From a virus (Duplodnaviria > Caudoviricetes): a DNA stretch of 30,191 nt. The DNA lies in the IMG/VR virus record IMGVR_UViG_3300035670_000957, positions 1 through 30,191 of that record; one strand, written 5' to 3'. Shown piece by piece: positions 2,852 through 19,887 of the stretch (positions within the stretch are counted from its first letter, which is position 1; each line of letters starts with the position of its first letter). Under the pieces are notes generated by a model, which worked only from the letters and a program-made list of their open reading frames with translations, searched no databases and was not told the DNA's origin. The position numbers and the translations under genes are program-made.

Positions 2852-5494
2852 CTACAATGTGATGATGCCCAGCTTCGGCCACGCGGCGTTGCCGAGGCGC
2901 GCAGCCTTCCGCGCCTTCCACTCGTCGGTGTAGCCCTCCGGATCCGTGCCGTGTGCAACGCCGGCCCGATCGGTGCCCCACTCCGAGACAGCGATATATC
3001 GCCGACCACCAATCGGCTCGTCCATGTACGCATCGACAATCACCATGTCAGTCGCGCCTGGTGCAGCATCGCGCATATACCACTCCGGCGGTACCACTCG
3101 AGCTTCGACCACTTCGACGGCAGGCTCGACGGCTTCGACGATGTCGGCGGTGTCGCCGACCATATGGTCAGTCCCTTGTCCCTTGTCCCCTGTTGGGGGC
3201 CTTATAGGCCCCCCAACAACAGGGGACAAGGGGACAGGTAGGGGACAAATAGGGGACAACTCAGGCGACATAGGGGACAACACCGGCGACGTTTCGCATT
3301 GCAATGCGGAATCGCCTATTGCGCCACTGGCGACAGCACTGGGGACAGAATCATCAGGCGACAGGGGACAAACGGTGCCCTTGTCCCCAGTGACAGGGGA
3401 CAGATTTCCGTTGTCCCCAGTGACTGGCGACACACTGGCGACAGATAGGGGACAAGGTGGCGACAACACTGGCGACAGTGGCGACAGTGGCGACACGGGG
3501 TTGACGCGCCAGTTGTAGCGCCCATCCTCGCTGGCCAGTGCGGCGGTTCCGATACCCCCAGCGGCAGCGACGCCTTCCAGGTACTGCTGGCCCCTCTCGG
3601 TGATGGTGAACAAACTGTTGTTCTGTTCGATCATGAATCGCTTCAACAACCGGGAGATACTCTTGCTGACCGTCTGCCGCGACTGCCCTGACGAGTCGAC
3701 AAGAGCCGACTGCGACGCCCCGTCGCGATACTGCTGCAGCATCAGAACCTCGAGGAGCTGCAGCTGCATCGGCGACAGCGGTCGATCGGCAGCTGGCGCC
3801 GCCCGATGATGGGGCGTCAGCACCACACTATCGGCCACGCCGACCATGGCGTAGTAGAGCTCCTCGAACGGCTTGCCGTTGTTGGCCTTGTCCACACGCA
3901 GTGTGACGCGGTTGTCGTCGGCATCGGCAGCGACACGCACAACCACGCGCGACGCGCCGCGCAGCGCACTCGAGCCGCGCTCGTGGGCGTCATCCCAGCC
4001 CGCGTGGTGCACGACGAGCAGCGCCGGGTTGCCGGCATCGGCGACCAGTGTGCGCAGCGCCGCGACGGCAATGCCCATGTCCTGCGCCGCGTTCTCGTCG
4101 AGCCCAGCCGCGCCCAGGCACTCCGCCAGCGGATCGATGATGATCATGCGGGCCTCGAGGGCGCGGCACTCATCAGACAGCGCGCCGATCTGATCGCGAT
4201 CGCGCAGGTTGATCGCCTCGGGGTAGACGTAGAACTGCCCCGGCCCCTGGCTGCGCGTGTGCTGGCACCACGCGTGGATGCGCGGCGCAAGCTCGCCGGG
4301 AGCCTCGCCAGCCACGTACACCACCGGCATGTGCTGCGCAATGGTCAGCGCGACATCGAGTGCGGCGAGGCTCTTGCCTGCGCCCGGCTTGCCGAAGAAC
4401 TGGGTGATGACGCCCAGGCCGAGGAGCTTGTCGACCAACCATGTGGTCTGCGGCAGGTTCGCCAGATCACTCGCATGGATCAACGACGTGTAGCGCCGTG
4501 CTGGCGCTGTGACGCCACCAGAAGCCTCAGGAACGACGACAGCATCGGACGCCACAGATTGCACGGGCGCGTCGGCAGCGTGACGCTCACGTGGTTCGTC
4601 GTCGCGCCAGTCGATCCGAGCCGGATCACGCAGCCCAGCATCGTAGCCGCTGCGCATCGTCGACACGATCTCGCGATTGCCCAGGCCGATGGCGCCGGCA
4701 GTGCTCTGCACGACGTCGAGCCACCGCTGCGCATCGGCGATGGTGCCGGCCGCGTCCAGCTGCCCGAGACGGTACGAGGTCCAGTTGAGCGCCTTGTTAC
4801 GCGCCCCTTCGCCAGCCTGGCTGAGCTCGCCGATCAGGCGCTCCATGGCGTTCTCGCCGTATGCGTGTTTGCGCGCATCGCTGGGCGCAATGTCGAACCG
4901 AGTCGCGAGAACGCGTGGCGCGGGCGCGGTCACTGCCGGCACGGCCTCGACTGGCTGCGGCAGCAGCGCGATCATCTCCGATGCCGGCACGCAGATGGTG
5001 CCTCCGAGACGGTCCAGCGAATCCATCGTGAGGTGACACAGGTTCTCGCCGGCGATCCAGTCGTACCCGCTGCCGTCGTCTGCGCGCCAGCTCCTCTTGC
5101 GCTGCCAGTCCTGCGGGACGTCACGCATGATGATATGCAATCCGCGTCCGCTATGCGACCACTCCACGTAGCCGCGCTTGAGCGCGCGCGCCACGATCGG
5201 CTGCGCCCACGCGACCAGGCTTTTGCGATCACGCGGCGACGTCGCCACCTGGTCGAGGTCGAGCACGGCGAAGCCGTCCGACATCACACGCGCCAGGCCG
5301 AGCCGGTCGCCCAGCTGCGGCATGACGTCATCGATGTGGCGTCGGCTGGTCGCGGTTCGCCACTTCTCGTAGCGCCCAGGCCGCTTCTCGCCTGCGTCCC
5401 ATGTGATCCACTGATCCGCGTGCCGAATTGCCAGCGGCAGCAGCGTGTAATCCGCCTTGGTCAGAATTGCTTGGGTGCCGAGACTCGACGCCAT
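2852..5494 (-). CDS. Replication protein: prim-pol-like domain + RecA-fold AAA_25-type helicase + winged HTH + S/P-rich repeat region
   Basis: VLDLD and YVEWSHSGRGLHI (AEP-like); RNKALN (primase C-terminal-like); Walker A GKPGAGKS; Walker B IIIDPL; LVVHH and RGSSAL. RBS GGAGG lies upstream. Confidence 0.85.
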   Translation of the reverse strand: MASSLGTQAILTKADYTLLPLAIRHADQWITWDAGEKRPGRYEKWRTATSRRHIDDVMPQLGDRLGLARVMSDGFAVLDLDQVATSPRDRKSLVAWAQPIVARALKRGYVEWSHSGRGLHIIMRDVPQDWQRKRSWRADDGSGYDWIAGENLCHLTMDSLDRLGGTICVPASEMIALLPQPVEAVPAVTAPAPRVLATRFDIAPSDARKHAYGENAMERLIGELSQAGEGARNKALNWTSYRLGQLDAAGTIADAQRWLDVVQSTAGAIGLGNREIVSTMRSGYDAGLRDPARIDWRDDEPRERHAADAPVQSVASDAVVVPEASGGVTAPARRYTSLIHASDLANLPQTTWLVDKLLGLGVITQFFGKPGAGKSLAALDVALTIAQHMPVVYVAGEAPGELAPRIHAWCQHTRSQGPGQFYVYPEAINLRDRDQIGALSDECRALEARMIIIDPLAECLGAAGLDENAAQDMGIAVAALRTLVADAGNPALLVVHHAGWDDAHERGSSALRGASRVVVRVAADADDNRVTLRVDKANNGKPFEELYYAMVGVADSVVLTPHHRAAPAADRPLSPMQLQLLEVLMLQQYRDGASQSALVDSSGQSRQTVSKSISRLLKRFMIEQNNSLFTITERGQQYLEGVAAAGGIGTAALASEDGRYNWRVNPVSPLSPLSPVLSPPCPLSVASVSPVTGDNGNLSPVTGDKGTVCPLSPDDSVPSAVASGAIGDSALQCETSPVLSPMSPELSPICPLPVPLSPVVGGPIRPPTGDKGQGTDHMVGDTADIVEAVEPAVEVVEARVVPPEWYMRDAAPGATDMVIVDAYMDEPIGGRRYIAVSEWGTDRAGVAHGTDPEGYTDEWKARKAARLGNAAWPKLGIITL
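3171..3495. repeat. Cluster of about 20 GG(G/C)GACA heptamers with a long hairpin; candidate iteron origin
   Basis: GGGGACA/GGCGACA occurs in both orientations. There is an imperfect inverted repeat at 3171-3235 and a 14-bp palindrome CGCATTGCAATGCG at 3295-3308. Confidence 0.75.
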
Positions 5495-5513
5495 GATGAC
5501 CTCCGTGTATAAT
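5485..5513 (+). promoter_or_regulatory. Possible sigma70-type promoter antisense to the rep leader
   Basis: TCGACG (5485-5490), 17-nt spacer, TATAAT (5508-5513). Confidence 0.4.
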
Positions 5514-5627
5514 GGCGGTGTGCCGCGTTCTGATCATTCGCTCCGACAGAATGTGCATTCTCCGGGCCCCTGTCCTGACGCCGCCGGTGGACGAAACCGG
5601 CGGCGTTCGTGTGTCCGGCAGTATAGC

Positions 5628-5846
5628 CTATCGGCGTCGCCGTGGTGCTGCTGCCGCTTCCTCCTCGGCGCGCTTCGCTGCGATGTGATCGACGATGACC
5701 ATCCGCAGGTACTGCGATAGCGCCATGCCGTAGCGCTGCGCCATCTGCTCGACCTGATTGAACACGATCATCGGTACCGGCACGCTGATGCGGATTGCGT
5801 CTGGGCCCACGCGTCGTGGCGTGCGCGAACGTGGTGGATTGGTCAT
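5628..5846 (-). CDS. Ribbon-helix-helix (CopG/Arc-like) DNA-binding protein
   Basis: 72 aa from ATG 5846 with a GGAG RBS; strand-helix-helix pattern IRISVPVP-MIVFNQVEQMAQRYG-MALSQYLRMVIVDHI. Confidence 0.75.
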   Translation of the reverse strand: MTNPPRSRTPRRVGPDAIRISVPVPMIVFNQVEQMAQRYGMALSQYLRMVIVDHIAAKRAEEEAAAAPRRRR

Positions 5847-5881
5847 AGCCGTCTCCATATAATGGCGGTTCCCATGACCAC

Positions 5882-5890
5882 AGTATAACA
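5882..5890 (-). promoter_or_regulatory. Extended -10 promoter for the leftward RHH/rep operon
   Basis: TGtTATACT on the minus strand in an AT-rich divergent gap; no good -35. Confidence 0.5.
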
Positions 5891-5932
5891 CACATTCTCC
5901 CCACGCACATCTATATAGCAATCGGATTGCGC

Positions 5933-5961
5933 TTGCACATCTCGTGCCGTTGTGGTATACT
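5933..5961 (+). promoter_or_regulatory. Rightward sigma70-type promoter
   Basis: TTGCAC, 17-nt spacer, TATACT with a TGn extension; adjacent palindrome GCAATC-G-GATTGC at 5918-5930. Confidence 0.7.
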
Positions 5962-6007
5962 CTGGTCATCGGGCAACGCATGCCCGAAATGGCAAGGAGA
6001 CATAACC

Positions 6008-6238
6008 ATGCAACACGTTCCTGACGCTTGGTGGATCGGACGCGGACTGCCGGGACAATCGCCGATCGAGACGGAGCTGTGCGAGGAGCTCGACACGCTG
6101 CGCAGCGTGATGAGCACGATCGACCGTCTGCTGGACACATCGCCACACGCCGAGTCGCTGGCCAGCCTGGGCTACCAGGTGCAGGAGCGCATCGAGGAAA
6201 TCGAGCGCGATCTGCGCAGCATTCGGTACTACCTGTGA
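6008..6238 (+). CDS. Hypothetical protein (helical/coiled-coil)
   Basis: AAGGAG RBS before ATG 6008; first gene after the promoter. Confidence 0.7.
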   Translation: MQHVPDAWWIGRGLPGQSPIETELCEELDTLRSVMSTIDRLLDTSPHAESLASLGYQVQERIEEIERDLRSIRYYL

Positions 6239-6442: not shown

Positions 6443-7252
6443 ATGACGTTCGACATCAACGATCTCGACAACTTCACCAGCGCCTACACCGACAACGCAC
6501 CGCAGGGCGACGGCCTCGCCAGGATTCATTGGCACAACGGCGATCCGGGCGCAAGGACTCCCGGCTCGTTCTTCCTGACGCGGCGCAACGCCGAGAACAA
6601 CGGCGTGACCGTGGACGGCTCGCCGTGGCGCGACGTCGTGCGCACGTTCCGGTCAGGCACGAGCGAAGACGGCTACGAAGCCCGCGCGCTGAAGTTGGCC
6701 GTGCTCGGCGTCCGGCAGTCTGACGTCGTGATCGACGCCGAGGGCGTGATGACCTACGTGGGCCGCACGCCACGCGGCGCGGCACGGCCTGCCGGCTGGT
6801 CGCTGTACGTCGAAATCCTCTGCATGGCGCAGGGGCTCAACCAGCCCGTCGTGTGGGCCAGCAAGCGCATCAAGACGAGCATGGCCATGGTCACGATGCT
6901 GCGCGAGTACCGCAGCGCGCTGCTCGACAAGATCCGTCAGGAGAAGCGGAACCCGTCGATCCCGGCCTGGGCGTTCTGGCTGCCGATCCGCGGCGAGGTC
7001 GACGCCAAGCGGCAGCCGGTGTACGAGCGAACGAAGGGCGCGCCGGTGACGCCGCCAAGGCTAATCCTGCCGGACGGCGACGCGCTGACCATGGCCCGCG
7101 GGCTGTATGTCGGCAGGCAGCTGCTCGAGATCGGCGAGGAACTCCGCCGCGAGTACGACGGCTGGCTGCAGCAGACGCCGGCAGACGCCGCACCGGCGGC
7201 TCCGTCGCACAACACGCCGCAGCCGATCGACGATGATAGCCTGACCTTCTAA
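6443..7252 (+). CDS. Putative single-stranded DNA-binding / recombination-associated protein
   Basis: 269 aa ending in a Pro/Ala linker and the acidic-aromatic tail IDDDSLTF, similar to the SSB C-terminal tip; lies next to the clamp gene. Function is inferred. Confidence 0.5.
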   Translation: MTFDINDLDNFTSAYTDNAPQGDGLARIHWHNGDPGARTPGSFFLTRRNAENNGVTVDGSPWRDVVRTFRSGTSEDGYEARALKLAVLGVRQSDVVIDAEGVMTYVGRTPRGAARPAGWSLYVEILCMAQGLNQPVVWASKRIKTSMAMVTMLREYRSALLDKIRQEKRNPSIPAWAFWLPIRGEVDAKRQPVYERTKGAPVTPPRLILPDGDALTMARGLYVGRQLLEIGEELRREYDGWLQQTPADAAPAAPSHNTPQPIDDDSLTF

Positions 7253-9566: not shown

Positions 9567-9595
9567 TTGACAGTACTGTACCAGTCTGGTATATT
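9567..9595 (+). promoter_or_regulatory. Strong sigma70-type promoter with overlapping palindromes, heading the cassette array
   Basis: TTGACA, 17-nt spacer, TATATT with a TGn extension; palindromes ACAGTACTGT (9570-9579) and TACCAG-T-CTGGTA (9579-9591). Confidence 0.85.
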
Positions 9596-9646
9596 ACTGG
9601 TGTCGGCGGGAAACAGAGCCGCCCGCGACAGCAGGAGACACCGACC

Positions 9647-9922
9647 ATGACGACCACCACTGCCGCCCCGACCTTCCAGACGATCGCCGAGCTCAAGGCC
9701 AGCGCAATGTACCGCCGCTGGGTCGAGCTGGACCGCGAGATCGGCGCAGCGATCACGGCACGCGACAAGGCGCAGTCCTACAGCTACGTGCGGGAGGACG
9801 GCACGCCGGTCCAGGCGAAGGCGATCGCCCGGCACCAGGCAACGATCGATCGGCTGCTGCCGGAGTGGGAGCCGCTGGACGAGATGATCCTGACGATCAG
9901 CGCCAACCTCCGCCGCCGCTGA
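9647..9922 (+). CDS. Cassette gene 1, hypothetical (91 aa)
   Basis: Starts at CAGGAGACACCGACC-ATG; its stop codon is the first TGA of repeat 1. Confidence 0.8.
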   Translation: MTTTTAAPTFQTIAELKASAMYRRWVELDREIGAAITARDKAQSYSYVREDGTPVQAKAIARHQATIDRLLPEWEPLDEMILTISANLRRR

Positions 9923-9989
9923 CACCGACGACGACGACCGGGCGCCGCTGTGGTGCCCGGCACTGACCAGACAGGAGACACCGACCATG
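9920..9989 (+). repeat. Intergenic cassette repeat copy 1
   Basis: TGACACCGACGACGACGACCGGGCGCCGCTGTGGTGCCCGGCACTGACCAGACAGGAGACACCGACCATG. Confidence 0.95.
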
Positions 9990-10229
9990 CAGTTCACGAA
10001 CGCAGTCGCCTACCACGCAGCCGCCCAGATCTTGATCGCCGAGCGTGACGAGTGCCTGGCAGCGATCGAGCGGGCCAATCGCATGTACGACGCTGCCATC
10101 GCCCCGGCTCGCGACGGCGACGACTCGATCCAGCGCGCCTACCTGCAGGACGGCTGCATCCGGATGATCCGCCGCGCGACTCGCGCACTGCACGACGTCG
10201 AGGCCAAACTTCGCGCGATGGACGAGTGA
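9987..10229 (+). CDS. Cassette gene 2, hypothetical (80 aa)
   Basis: ATG supplied by repeat 1 and TGA by repeat 2. Confidence 0.8.
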   Translation: MQFTNAVAYHAAAQILIAERDECLAAIERANRMYDAAIAPARDGDDSIQRAYLQDGCIRMIRRATRALHDVEAKLRAMDE

Positions 10230-10298
10230 CACCGACGATGACGATGACCGGGCGCCGCTGTGGTGCCCGGCACTGACCAGACAGGAGACACGACCATG
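10227..10298 (+). repeat. Intergenic cassette repeat copy 2
   Basis: Same 44-bp core; the GAC/GAT tract is one triplet longer. Confidence 0.95.
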
Positions 10299-10532
10299 AC
10301 GAACGCAACCGCAACCGCCATCGCAACCGCCCGCCTGACCTTCGCCATCGACATGCTGGAAGAGTGGCTCGGCTTCGCCAGCGACGCCACCAACGACGGC
10401 GATCGCGCCGAGTACCTGGTGAAGGCAAGCAGCTGGCGCGCACAGGTTGCCGAGCTGCAGGCATCGGTGCCGCCGACGTGCCGCGCCTACCGCCGCGCGA
10501 CCGAGGTCCTCGACGCAACGACATCGATCTGA
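10296..10532 (+). CDS. Cassette gene 3, hypothetical (78 aa)
   Basis: MTNATATAIATA...; bounded exactly by repeats 2 and 3. Confidence 0.8.
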   Translation: MTNATATAIATARLTFAIDMLEEWLGFASDATNDGDRAEYLVKASSWRAQVAELQASVPPTCRAYRRATEVLDATTSI

Positions 10533-10596
10533 CACCGACGACGACGACCGGGCGCCGCTGTGGCGCCCGGCACTGACCAGACAGGAGACGACCATG
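10530..10596 (+). repeat. Intergenic cassette repeat copy 3
   Basis: Same core with a T>C change in the 3' stem arm and a shorter RBS-ATG spacer. Confidence 0.95.
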
Positions 10597-11163
10597 ACGA
10601 CTCGCACGATCACCACCGCCACCGCAATCGCCACCGCCGCCGCCCTGACCACCGCCCAGCGCCAGCGCCAGCTGCTGGCCAGCCGCATCGCCTACTGGAC
10701 GTCGAAGGCCTCGCAGTTCGCCAGCGACGAGGTCCGCGTGTACACGCGGAAGGCGGTCGAGCTGGACGCGCAGATCGCCGAGCTCGAGATCGCCGCCGCC
10801 GCCGAGCCGTTCTGCGCCGACGATGTCCTGCTGACGCCGGACGCCATCGAGTGGCTGTACCTGCAGGCCAGCGCTGCCTGTGGGCGCGACCATCTGGAGC
10901 CGGCGCACCTGCGCTCGGATGCCGGCTACGGGCAGACGCACGCCAGCACGCATGCCGCACTGCTGTGGCAGCAGCTGCACCGCGCTGGCGAGGCCATCGC
11001 GCTGCCGACGATCCAGCAGCGCCACAGCGCCGCACAGGAGCGGCTGGCGGCGGCGGAGGCAGCGTACGAGGCATCGGACGATGCCACCACGTGGGGCGCG
11101 TATCTGGAGGCACGCGGGGTGGCTAGCGTCTGGCAGGACGCACTGATGTACCTGGGGTTCTGA
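10594..11163 (+). CDS. Cassette gene 4, hypothetical (189 aa)
   Basis: MTTRTITTATAIATAAA...; bounded exactly by repeats 3 and 4. Confidence 0.8.
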   Translation: MTTRTITTATAIATAAALTTAQRQRQLLASRIAYWTSKASQFASDEVRVYTRKAVELDAQIAELEIAAAAEPFCADDVLLTPDAIEWLYLQASAACGRDHLEPAHLRSDAGYGQTHASTHAALLWQQLHRAGEAIALPTIQQRHSAAQERLAAAEAAYEASDDATTWGAYLEARGVASVWQDALMYLGF

Positions 11164-11230
11164 CATCGACGACGACCGACCGGGCGCCGCTGTGGCGCCC
11201 GGCACTGACCAGACAGGAGACACGACGATG
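11161..11230 (+). repeat. Intergenic cassette repeat copy 4
   Basis: TGACATCGACGACGACCGACCGGGCGCCGCTGTGGCGCCCGGCACTGACCAGACAGGAGACACGACGATG. Confidence 0.95.
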
Positions 11231-11644
11231 AGCTACCGCAAGCACCACGACGAGGACATGATGATCGCCGCTGCCAGCGCCGCACGCCGGACGCAGATCG
11301 TGCCGGACCACTGCCTGATCGGGCGCGTCACCGTGACGCGCTGGGCGCCGTTCGATGACGCCATCGCCAACGGGCTGGCAGTGTCAATCCTCGCCACGGC
11401 GCTGGGCGTCGTGCCCGGCAGCAACCGCTGGGAGACGGTGCTGATGGAGATGCCGAGGCTGCGGCTGGCGTGGATCAAGGCGATGCTGCTCGAGCGCTGG
11501 GGCGCACTGGGCTGGCAGCAGCGCCGGCAGGGCCAGATCCGGCAGGTGTCGATCAACCTGCCGGACAGGGAGGCCCGGGCGCTGTACGAGACGCTCAGCG
11601 CCGTCAACCTCGACTGGCGCGTCGAGCTGTTCGTGCGCGAGTGA
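11228..11644 (+). CDS. Cassette gene 5, hypothetical (138 aa)
   Basis: ATG supplied by repeat 4; ends in TGACGATGA just before the palindrome. Confidence 0.8.
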   Translation: MSYRKHHDEDMMIAAASAARRTQIVPDHCLIGRVTVTRWAPFDDAIANGLAVSILATALGVVPGSNRWETVLMEMPRLRLAWIKAMLLERWGALGWQQRRQGQIRQVSINLPDREARALYETLSAVNLDWRVELFVRE

Positions 11645-11653
11645 CGATGATCT

Positions 11654-11689
11654 ACCAGACGCGCCAGGAACGTTCCTGGCGCGTCTGGT
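11654..11689. repeat. Perfect 36-bp palindrome
   Basis: ACCAGACGCGCCAGGAAC|GTTCCTGGCGCGTCTGGT, with no spacer. Confidence 0.95.
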
Positions 11690-11705
11690 GCATGGAGGTG
11701 CTACT

Positions 11706-17029: not shown

Positions 17030-19887
17030 TAGATGCCTCGCGGTAGCTGCGACTGCACAATGCCACGGCGCGCGGCTTCGTCCATCCCATCGCGGACGGC
17101 GCGCTTGATGGCGTCGATGTCGCGCGCGTCGCGGACGCTGCCGATGTTGATGACGATCGATGGGCTGGAGCCCGCTGTGACCGATGCGCCAGGTAGCACG
17201 CTACCGACTGCTGCCCCTCGTGTCGTTGGTGGCGGCGCTGGCAGCATCGCGGCAGCGCTGCGCGTGACCTTGAATCCGAGCAGCGCCAGCGCATCGCGAA
17301 TCGGCTTTGGCAGCGACTCGAGCGCGTTCCTGACCACATCCTTGAACGCGGTCTTGATGGACTCGAGGCTATTGCTGATGCCGTTTTTGATGCCGTTGAT
17401 CAGACTGTTCGCAATAGCTGTCGCTTGAGTCGCCAAGGAAAACGTGCTCAGCCAATCCTTCACAGAGGTTATGGCGTCGATTACATCGTCTTTGATATCA
17501 CTCAACGGTGTTGTGATTGCGCTCGCCGCGTCGGTGATCGTCGAGGTGATACGAGACTTGATGTTGCTCAGATTGCTGGTGATGCCGTTCCACGCGTCGT
17601 TGATCGTCGAGATGATGCGAGACTTGATGTTCGCCAGATTGCTGGTGATCCCGTTCCACGCGTCGTTGATCGTCGAGATGATTCGATTCTTGATGTTCGC
17701 CAGGTAGCCTGTGATGCCGTTCCACGCGTCGTTGATCGTCGAGATGATGCGAGACTTGATGTTCGCCAGATTGCTGGTGATCCCGTTCCACGCGTCGTTG
17801 ATCGTCGAGATGATGCGAGACTTGATGTTCGCTAGATTGCTGGTGATCCCGTTCCACGCGTCGTTGATCGTCGAGATGATGCCGTTCTTGATCGTCGTCA
17901 GCGTTGTGGTGATCCCGTTCCACGCGTCGTTGATGGCGTTGACGATGCCGTTCTTGATGTTCGCCAGGTACCCTGTGATCCCGTTCCACGCGTCGTTGAT
18001 CGTCGAGATGATGCGATTCTTGATGTTCGCCAGGTAGCCTGTGATCCCGTTCCACGCGTCGGTGATGGCGTTGACGATGCCGTTCTTGATCGTTGTCAGC
18101 GGCGGACCGATAACCGCCCAGATGGCGCTGAACGTCGTCACGATGCCGTTGTAGATACCATCGACGATCAACTTCAGACCATTCTGCAGGCCTTGCCAAT
18201 CGCCTCGGATCAGCGCGGTGATGGTCTGCACCACGCCGCGGATCACGGTCATGAATGCACTGATCTGCTGGCTGATGTAGCGGAACACACCGATGGCGAA
18301 GTCCTGAATCTGTTTGCCGTATGTCTGCCAGTACGTTTGAATCGCTTTGAGAATGTTGTTGATCACCTTGCCGATACCGATCATCGCCGCGTTGATCAGC
18401 TGGTAGATGTCATTCCACAGCGCGCCGAGCTGCGTCGCGAGGTCGTTCACCGTGGCGATGATCTCGTCGCCGTATGTCGCCCAAAACTCCGCGATCACCT
18501 CGGTGATGGTCGCGACCGTTGCCTCGATCTGCATCATCACGCTGCGCACCACGGCCTGCGCCGTTTTGAAGATTCGGTCGATGGTTTCGCCAACCTGTGG
18601 GAAGTTGGTATTGATGTACTCCACCAGCTTCATGCCGCCGGCCACCACGGCGAACAATGCGGCGACAAACGCGACCGTGGTCGCAATCACGCCGGCAATC
18701 GGCGCGATCACGGATGCCAGCGCAGCGACCAGCGCCACGCCGACCACTGCCACGAGTCCAACAATGATCGGGATGAGATTGTCCTGGACGATCTTGATGA
18801 ACGGCTGCAGCGCCGCGACGATCGCAGTCCCCTGGCCGGCGAACTGCTCGAGGCCCGGCACCAGCTTGAACACTTCCTCGAAGAGCTGCGCCAGCGGATC
18901 CTCGGCAGCCATGATGCTGTTCGCCACGCCCAGCAGCAGATCGCTGAGCGGCAGCAGCGCGAGCGAGAACTTGTCGAAGATCAGCGCCGGAACTTCGCCG
19001 AGTGAGCCCAGGATCACGCCGCGCTCGGCCTCGGCGGTTTCGCCGAGCTGTTCCATGCTCGTGCCGGTCATGGTCAGTTGCGACATGATCTGCGGGCCGA
19101 GGTCTTCCCACTGCGTGCCGAAAAACTCAATACCAATTGTATTTCTCAACAGCTCGTTGTCGAGACCGTTGAGTGCCGGCAATAGCTCTTTCATGGCATC
19201 AGCTACTGAATATGTTCCAGCCTGCATACCGTATACAATGCGATTAAAGTCTAAACTTGTGAAGCCCAGCGTTTTTAATCGTTGTTCAAATAGATTAACC
19301 TCCTTCATTTCTCCTTCATCAAATATCTTAAGTGTTTGATTAGGTAACTCGCGAATGCGAATGCCGAACTCCTTGAAGGCGTCGGCGGCCTTGTCGGTGC
19401 CGAGCACACCGCCGGCCAAGCCGCTCTCGAGCAGCGAGAAGAACTCCTCGGCGGTGGCGCCGCCATCGACGAACAGGTTCGAGTACTCGCCGATGCTGTC
19501 GAGGAAATCGCCGGAGGCATTGAGCCCGCGACTGAACCCCGACACGATGAGGTCGGTGGCTTCCTCACTGGTCAGCCCGAAATCCTCCATCAGCGTGCGC
19601 GTCGCCGCCACCGTCTTGGTGACGTCTTCGCCGTACCTGCGCGCCAGCAGCTGAGCATCGTCAAGCACTGCGGTTAGATCGACGTCGTTGAGTCCCTGCA
19701 GAACGGTGCGCGCGTTCGATGCCTGGTCGCCGATGTTCATCAGCCCGGCAGTGATCGCAGCAACCCCGGCGCCGGCTGCGACGGCTGCGCTGGTGCCGAG
19801 CCCCGTCAGGCCGGTGTTGAGGTCTTTGATGGCGCCCTTCGCCATGTCCTTGAGCTTGACGATGATCTCGAGCTCGGCTGTGGCCAT
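17029..19887 (-). CDS. Tail tape measure protein
   Basis: About 950 aa and helical; TDKAADAFKEF and FGTQWEDLG motifs, hydrophobic middle region, Trp-periodic repeats. Confidence 0.93.
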   Translation of the reverse strand: MATAELEIIVKLKDMAKGAIKDLNTGLTGLGTSAAVAAGAGVAAITAGLMNIGDQASNARTVLQGLNDVDLTAVLDDAQLLARRYGEDVTKTVAATRTLMEDFGLTSEEATDLIVSGFSRGLNASGDFLDSIGEYSNLFVDGGATAEEFFSLLESGLAGGVLGTDKAADAFKEFGIRIRELPNQTLKIFDEGEMKEVNLFEQRLKTLGFTSLDFNRIVYGMQAGTYSVADAMKELLPALNGLDNELLRNTIGIEFFGTQWEDLGPQIMSQLTMTGTSMEQLGETAEAERGVILGSLGEVPALIFDKFSLALLPLSDLLLGVANSIMAAEDPLAQLFEEVFKLVPGLEQFAGQGTAIVAALQPFIKIVQDNLIPIIVGLVAVVGVALVAALASVIAPIAGVIATTVAFVAALFAVVAGGMKLVEYINTNFPQVGETIDRIFKTAQAVVRSVMMQIEATVATITEVIAEFWATYGDEIIATVNDLATQLGALWNDIYQLINAAMIGIGKVINNILKAIQTYWQTYGKQIQDFAIGVFRYISQQISAFMTVIRGVVQTITALIRGDWQGLQNGLKLIVDGIYNGIVTTFSAIWAVIGPPLTTIKNGIVNAITDAWNGITGYLANIKNRIISTINDAWNGITGYLANIKNGIVNAINDAWNGITTTLTTIKNGIISTINDAWNGITSNLANIKSRIISTINDAWNGITSNLANIKSRIISTINDAWNGITGYLANIKNRIISTINDAWNGITSNLANIKSRIISTINDAWNGITSNLSNIKSRITSTITDAASAITTPLSDIKDDVIDAITSVKDWLSTFSLATQATAIANSLINGIKNGISNSLESIKTAFKDVVRNALESLPKPIRDALALLGFKVTRSAAAMLPAPPPTTRGAAVGSVLPGASVTAGSSPSIVINIGSVRDARDIDAIKRAVRDGMDEAARRGIVQSQLPRGI
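17540..18095 (-). repeat. 66-bp (22-aa) tandem repeats in the TMP
   Basis: TTCCACGCGTC recurs every 66 nt from 17588 to 18050 (8 copies); protein unit INDAWNGITSNLANIKSRIIST. Confidence 0.95.

Follow-up and report, generated by a model that had tools for sequence, protein, structure and literature searches.

The window analysed here (the whole stretch of 30,191 nucleotides, IMG/VR record IMGVR_UViG_3300035670_000957) covers most of the genome of a tailed phage of about 32 kb, and between positions 9567 and 11690 it carries an array of small genes separated by structured repeats. The preliminary description of this DNA had taken the array for a promoter-headed series of gene cassettes, and the layout it gave is confirmed: there is a single sigma70-like promoter, followed by five open reading frames (ORFs; A to E), four repeats of 67-72 bp and a closing hairpin. 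The promoter is near consensus, as claimed (TTGACA, 17 bp, TATATT, with a TG that makes an extended -10; 11 of 12 consensus matches), and it is the only plus-strand promoter-like site between 7000 and 15000; on both strands together there are 2 such sites, against 0.6 expected. The features of the array are as follows, with related sequences denoted by L numbers.

9567..9595 (+), predicted sigma70-type promoter with extended -10, heading the array; at the same position in both clades
9579..9591, possible operator, a palindrome (TACCA-N3-TGGTA) that lies in the spacer of the promoter and overlaps its extended -10
9600..9649 (+), leader: a 5' stem-loop (predicted, weak) followed by a partial repeat copy of 18 bp (ribosome-binding site, RBS, to ATG, 9632-9649)
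9647..9922 (+), cassette A, 91 amino acids (aa); a short allelic form of A' (186-197 aa) and a paralogue of cassette F; ratio of nonsynonymous to synonymous polymorphism (pN/pS) 0.29
9920..9989 (+), repeat 1: TGA, GAC tract, 9-bp hairpin (9938-9960), AGGAG RBS, ATG
9987..10229 (+), cassette B, 80 aa; absent in L003, L007, L008 and L010; pN/pS 0.20
10227..10298 (+), repeat 2, hairpin at 10248-10270
10296..10532 (+), cassette C, 78 aa, with alleles of 77 and 123 aa; missing from L011; pN/pS 0.48
10530..10596 (+), repeat 3, hairpin at 10548-10570
10594..11163 (+), cassette D, 189 aa; 62-aa cassette F instead in L004, L008, L009 and L010; pN/pS 0.43
11161..11230 (+), repeat 4, hairpin at 11180-11202; a hairpin-less spacer in its place in F-type arrays
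11228..11644 (+), gene E, 138 aa; in both clades, the final gene wherever the 3' end of an array is seen
11653..11690, 17-bp perfect hairpin closing the array; z -7.3, no U-tract

Each gap between genes consists of one repeat, which runs from the upstream TGA through the next ATG. The four copies have, as described earlier, a common 44-nt core (at 9936, 10246, 10546 and 11178) in which a single T/C position varies, and neighbouring repeats carry the same T or C variant. The longest exact repeat in the region is 46 nt, compared to at most 17 in 200 order-4 Markov simulations. In all four repeats the predicted fold is a 9-bp stem with a 5-nt loop (z -1.55 to -4.24), and the stem ends 12 nt ahead of the AGGAG. 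The partial copy reported before the first gene is also there, as 18 exact bases (9632-9649) common to the leader and repeat 1. The repeats contain no promoter-like site in a scan for sigma70-type promoters (other promoter types are outside that scan), and as printed they hold no AAC or GTT and so neither the RYYYAAC nor the GTTRRRY box of an attC site, no attC model having been run; both absences had been part of the preliminary description. They also have no U-tract and gave no terminator-like call, and a search of the region against Rfam gave no match at E<=1. By prediction, the array is one promoter ahead of promoter-less cassettes, and the closing hairpin is a likely terminator. The palindrome in the promoter is intact in 10 of 11 promoters, with a variable centre and with the left arm broken in L001.

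Close relatives differ in the gene content of the array. The repeat was found in 4 IMG/VR contigs and 5 metagenome contigs, which are about 87-96% identical to the window in the parts they share. Nine informative sequences of this first clade, the window included and L009 left out since it starts inside C, carry the cargo in seven arrangements.

A-B-C-D: the window
B-C-D: L001, L002
A'-C-D: L003
B-C-F: L004
A'-C-F: L007, L008
G-C-F: L010
B-D: L011

The losses and replacements have their limits at the repeats or at the partial copy in the leader. Where gene A is lost (L001, L002, L004 and L011), the missing part lies between the 18-bp copy in the leader and repeat 1, and where B or C is lost, between two repeats; the exchange of D for F has a full repeat on its left and only the RBS segment on its right. 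For the pairs A/B, A/D and B/D, all four combinations of presence and absence occur. The proposal that whole ORFs are gained, lost and replaced at the repeats is thus borne out, both by these seven arrangements and by a second clade with other cargo, and the finding that would have spoken against it, that relatives always carry the same five genes, was not made. The proposal that ORFs are also reordered does not hold up, because the order of genes is the same in every assembled locus. The single contrary hint is a Logan contig of run X15, in which a backward joint (10600 to 9650) connects a repeat to a short A gene; a repeat-preceded A allele and a circle would fit this joint equally well. The same run has a loose end at window position 9652, which would be a further, unseen first cassette after the leader ATG.

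The evidence for these junctions consists of assemblies and of Logan contigs from eight runs, and assembly errors at the 44-70-bp repeats in mixed phage populations might mimic gene swaps. Logan contigs do break at the repeats in most runs. It is nevertheless highly improbable that the pattern arose in this way: cassettes F and G, and H to L of the second clade, are new sequence and cannot stem from skipping, C-F-E recurs in four loci and B-C-D in two, and the succession of A, repeat 1 and B found in the window is also covered by X11, a contig of 31,993 nt that comes from a different study.

The second clade came to light through one homologue of E, which led to three contigs with 69-80% nucleotide identity in the genes that can be aligned. 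These have the same promoter, E as the last gene and the terminal hairpin, but the cargo is different (H, I, J, K and L), in the arrangements H-I-J-E, K-L-second promoter-H-J-E and (H)-J-E. In L029, the absence of gene I coincides exactly with a repeat. In the same contig (L029:4149-5033), a block of promoter, K, repeat, L and partial repeat lies ahead of the second promoter copy, and from its sequence this block looks like a recent promoter-proximal acquisition or duplication. Scans for a third clade with the beta clamp, a 269-aa conserved protein and the E alignment gave the same contigs and L016, a contig without the array region. Among 50,697 records of known phages, blastn found no match to the array, and the best capsid match was 43%.

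Comparison of the two clades shows which part of the repeat is conserved. Copies are alike within a clade and different between clades; the sequence of the loop and the inner stem is invariant while the flanks have diverged, so that the repeat of the second clade retains only a 19-nt hairpin core and the stop/RBS frame. This core is kept in all 32 of the copies counted by pattern (13 sequences), with one G-C/G-U position that varies and the variant seen in two. One outer pair of the hairpin is changed on both sides between the clades. Two other identities for the repeat were tried and rejected. A host element of the repetitive extragenic palindromic (REP) kind finds no support, the 26-nt core having 0 exact matches in GTDB genomes; for a Chi-like role, the loop heptamer shows no strand bias in the window (9 plus-strand and 8 minus-strand copies).

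The cassette genes themselves look real and native. As the preliminary description had it, they belong to no recognisable family: the five ORFs have no Pfam or PHROG match at E<=0.01 and no PADLOC model, NCBIfam gave one sub-threshold match for the five, and such matches as the cassette proteins have in NCBIfam, Pfam and PADLOC are weak (E 0.001-0.04) and far below the curated cutoff where one exists. The cargo has pN/pS values of 0.20-0.48 and a codon adaptation index (CAI) of 0.67-0.83, compared to 0.64-0.68 for the capsid, amidase and clamp genes. Homologues are confined to this phage group (3 of 2,890 candidates for D, 5 of 40 for E and 15 of 482 for the A/F profile). The capture of foreign genes, which had been suggested for the array, is not supported, as codon usage is no less native in the cargo than in core genes and the cargo includes paralogous modules. 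In a phmmer comparison of 15 sequences, A and F are paralogues (E 4e-10), and weaker similarities connect D with the N-terminal part of A' (2.5e-5), B with the same part (2.8e-4) and D with C (5.5e-4); B, C and the A' N-terminus align with D at 22-47% identity. Exchange has also taken place inside coding sequences: the N-termini of C and D are swapped in L003, L008 and L011, and the proteins P0069, P0073 and P0074 are A/F chimeras.

These similarities raise the possibility of a gene accordion, in which one small gene and its upstream region were duplicated in tandem, the copies diverged and relatives then deleted some of them, leaving the repeat as a passive relic. The A/F match and the weak similarities among B, C, D and the A' N-terminus are what such a history would leave, as are the fixed gene order and the T or C variant shared by neighbouring repeats. 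As a full account it is unlikely. For E, G and the second-clade genes H, I and J there is no convincing resemblance to A-D, the D/F and G differences are replacements and not deletions, and the similarities among the helical proteins may be partly compositional, given their Ala-rich sequences. Near-identical repeats between genes at 22-47% identity would, in addition, need homogenisation or selection. Origin of the ORFs as paralogues from simple tandem duplication had been named as a result that would count against a shuffling platform, and it holds in part, since A/F and B/C/D/A'-N are paralogous modules.

Gene E deserves separate attention as the invariant last gene. Its fold is predicted to be ferredoxin-like (of the ACT/S6/RRM type) with a helical insertion in two models, with predicted confidence (pLDDT) of 65 and 74. 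An idea suggested by its C-terminus, that E is a ribbon-helix-helix (RHH) autorepressor, was set aside because both predicted models have the ferredoxin-like topology instead. The best VIA-align Z score of an E model is 7.2, with none of at least 8, and no function follows for E because these best structural matches are generic ACT, S6 and RRM domains. Foldseek found no match to E at E<=0.001 in the PDB or BFVD, and the ESM Atlas gave nothing for it. A profile of E retrieved 5 proteins among 1.84 billion representatives; two matches (P0008 and P0011) were dropped as spurious, and three are full-length homologues.

The constancy of E allows for a dedicated system, in which a phage protein, most plausibly E, would bind or cleave the conserved hairpin and thereby regulate or process the message or guide recombination there. 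Such a cassette system would be self-contained, with genes entering next to the promoter, one hairpin for each gene, and E binding or cutting the hairpin to process the message or to steer exchange. The 7 IMG/VR contigs with the hairpin-plus-RBS pattern are the same 7 that encode an E homologue, although this co-occurrence follows from linkage in two clades. The loop and inner stem stayed invariant while their flanks diverged, and the predicted fold of E is one that includes the RNA-binding S6, RRM and Cas6-type domains; at a best Z of 7.2, however, ACT-like domains rank level with the RNA-binding ones. The E alignment has no conserved histidine for HUH chemistry, and for this reason, and for want of a Pfam match, a REP/RAYT pair was rejected as well. 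Crossover points also vary, which does not suit a hairpin-directed exchange, and on balance the dedicated system is a long shot. Were E to act on the hairpin, the array would be a recombinase-free, RNA-controlled counterpart of the integron, and the cargo would amount to a collection of new proteins for host takeover or anti-defence.

The explanation we favour, with a probability of about 0.65, is that the array is a single-promoter accessory operon, in which relatives lose or replace whole genes at the stop-hairpin-RBS-start units by homology-directed recombination and not through a site-specific recombinase. Adjacent units are identical over 25-46 bases, and because of these shared stretches the units likely act as recombination homology. 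Homology-directed recombination is preferred over integron-like capture because the crossovers wander, the codon usage is native and several of the genes are paralogues. A site-specific system is disfavoured because crossover points are not at one fixed base (some are in the RBS of the leader, others in 5' codons or inside paralogues) and no recombinase is visible, as the preliminary description had noted. None of five related records, one of them the 32,626-bp record with direct terminal repeats, has a match to PF00589 or PF00239, on which ground an integron or other site-specific recombinase was rejected; the 33 ORFs of the window have no match to PF00589.

In this accessory operon, the unit would be kept by selection as an expression element at the RNA level, in the form of a stem-loop placed 12 nt ahead of the Shine-Dalgarno sequence. 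The stem-loop likely stabilises or tunes each cistron of a polycistronic message, and the same design appears before other early-region genes and in the leader; for example, unrelated units of a hairpin, AGGAG and ACCATG stand ahead of the genes at 6008 and 7314. The units likely also supply the homology for deletion, replacement and conversion between co-infecting relatives, and any product of such recombination would at once be translatable from the single promoter. Part of the growth of the cargo likely took place within the phage group, as small helical modules were duplicated and domains shuffled. By analogy with phage accessory regions in general, as treated in the available part of bioRxiv 10.1101/2023.04.06.535777, the cargo would most likely modulate the host early in infection. 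The mechanism as a whole is most likely known biology.

Several points weigh against this explanation. The haplotypes all come from metagenome assemblies, and chimeras of assembly might therefore account for some junctions, and L007 was scored as F from four bases only. Reassortment of the slots could arise from crossovers in gene C or in the flanks, without use of the repeats. Genes vary internally as well (the 91-aa A and A', the 77-aa and 123-aa forms of C), and there are two gene-level insertions or deletions outside the array in about 15 kb, which makes the array a hotspot and not the sole variable site. No recombination protein was identified. The hairpin's sole compensatory pair reflects one event that a single clade inherited, and 403 of 500 shuffles yield as many; nor is the hairpin needed before every gene, since a hairpin-less spacer precedes E in F-type arrays.

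Known systems resemble the array in part. Integrons have one Pc promoter, promoter-less single-gene cassettes, structured attC repeats with RYYYAAC/GTTRRRY boxes, and the integrase IntI. The array is like them in having one promoter ahead of promoter-less cassettes with structured repeats, and most of its variety is promoter-proximal. It differs in that it has no IntI, no such boxes, no fixed crossover base and no reordering, and its cargo is native and partly paralogous. The acr-aca operons combine a strong promoter, variable small genes and a conserved 3' gene for a helix-turn-helix (HTH) or RHH autorepressor, and are not defined by repeats. The array also has a strong, palindrome-bearing promoter, variable small genes and one conserved 3' gene; however, the predictions for E do not point to an HTH or RHH protein, and none of the cargo genes has a match to a known family.

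The closest parallel is with the PeSL elements of T4-like phages (RB49/phi1, PST/T4 and nt-1/KVP40), which begin at the upstream stop codon, extend to the Shine-Dalgarno sequence and ATG and contain a stem-loop (Arbiol 2010 PMC2839356; Comeau 2014 PMC4122927). According to the portions of these papers available, PeSL-PeSL recombination deletes and replaces ORFans, with mini-circles shown (PMC2839356), and degraded half-PeSLs lie near insertions and deletions (Comeau 2014 PMC4122927). In the main-text descriptions each PeSL has a sigma70-like promoter and an AT-rich tract, there are about 50 per large-myovirus genome, and terminator activity has been shown (PMC2839356; PMC4122927). In both systems the stop-to-ATG unit contains a stem-loop and belongs to a variable region whose genes are small and unknown, with no dedicated recombinase known, and in both, relatives lose and replace genes at the units. 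By the same descriptions, PeSLs are set apart in carrying their own promoter, whereas the units of this array have neither a promoter-like site nor a U-tract; here there are four near-identical units in one 2-kb operon of a phage of about 32 kb, behind one upstream promoter. Measured against these accounts, the array works like PeSL cassettes but fails the defining internal promoter.

Start-associated sequences (SAS) of Cluster K mycobacteriophages are a further relative in form. In the available text of Pope 2011 (PMC3203893), SAS is a 13-bp motif in 11-19 scattered copies, with AGGAG just upstream of the ATG of non-structural genes and a proposed role in translation initiation, and ESAS adds 17-bp imperfect inverted repeats. 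The array shares an AGGAG-containing repeat a few bases before the ATG and an inverted repeat upstream. In contrast to SAS/ESAS as presented there, the sequence is another one, a 67-72-bp unit fills the gaps, four copies and a partial one lie within 2 kb, the stem is 9 bp, and the unit marks gene insertions and deletions. No description of a promoter-less repeat array of this kind was found in the open-access literature, and such repeats are not described in the available portions of bioRxiv 10.1101/2023.04.06.535777 or PMC12028318.

The rest of the genome is that of a tailed phage, with genes for terminase, portal, protease, capsid, tape measure, amidase, holin, methyltransferase, primase-helicase and beta clamp. 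A close relative of 32,626 bp has direct terminal repeats, and the approximately 2 kb missing from the window comprises the rest of terL and three ORFs. Two of these ORFs, which in L013 (2305-3675) lie between terL and portal, resemble ThyX and a deoxycytidine monophosphate deaminase in their motifs. One further conserved gene lies ahead of the clamp.

6443..7252 (+), 269-aa conserved protein ahead of the beta clamp, with an acidic C-terminus; similar to Pam3_Gp34/DUF5895 clusters, Atlas score 0.95, the family being on 25-56% of cluster members

This protein has no Pfam, PHROG or NCBIfam match and no significant sequence match in the PDB; by its position and acidic tail only, it is a candidate single-stranded DNA-binding or annealing factor.

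Several other observations concern the neighbourhood and the remaining genome. Directly after the terminal hairpin, L001 (6588-7241), L002 and L003 have a 217-aa gene, with no PADLOC match, which the window lacks (insertion point 11694/11697); L028 of the second clade has a similar-looking gene one position further on. The divergent control region at window positions 5490-6010 contains several hexamers that resemble TATAAT/TATACT, a small CopG-like gene (5628-5846) with a weak Pfam match and, ahead of 6008, a hairpin-RBS leader. The DNA methyltransferase gene at 1886-2740 has atypical codon usage (CAI 0.32) and is absent or replaced in L012, L013 and L015. Short repeats of the GGGGACA/GGCGACA type occupy the low-complexity C-terminal part of the primase-helicase gene (3100-3500), and a 66-bp tandem repeat (22-aa period) lies in the tape measure gene (17447-18172), with a copy number that apparently differs in relatives.

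Carriers of the array come from subsurface, lake and other aquatic metagenomes. As for the host, 5 of 89 candidate stretches gave a match to the amidase; four of these matches, at 47-51%, are in metagenome-assembled genomes (MAGs) of Chloroflexota/Roseiflexaceae. The fifth, at 93%, is on a 1,964-bp contig (L022 / G004:C38) of an actinobacterial MAG; this contig, 91-96% identical to the phage, is itself from this phage group, either mis-binned or a hint of the host. A search of 61 Roseiflexaceae genomes, limited to 4 scored candidates in each, found neither a spacer-like nor a prophage match to 10 of the 30 kb, and Roseiflexaceae genomes gave no E homologue. A metatranscriptome run (X19) gave scattered low-depth contigs that are uninformative on expression of the array.

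The array offers a compact, well-sampled example of a variable accessory operon that a small phage keeps ready for expression, with junctions resolved to the base. Across two clades, ten types of cargo gene (A/A', B, C, D, F, G, H, I, J and K; L may be a remnant) occupy a fixed frame from promoter to E. PeSL-type shuffling is thereby extended to promoter-less units and beyond the T4-like phages, and the cargo gives a short list of orphan proteins that turn over quickly and are under purifying selection.

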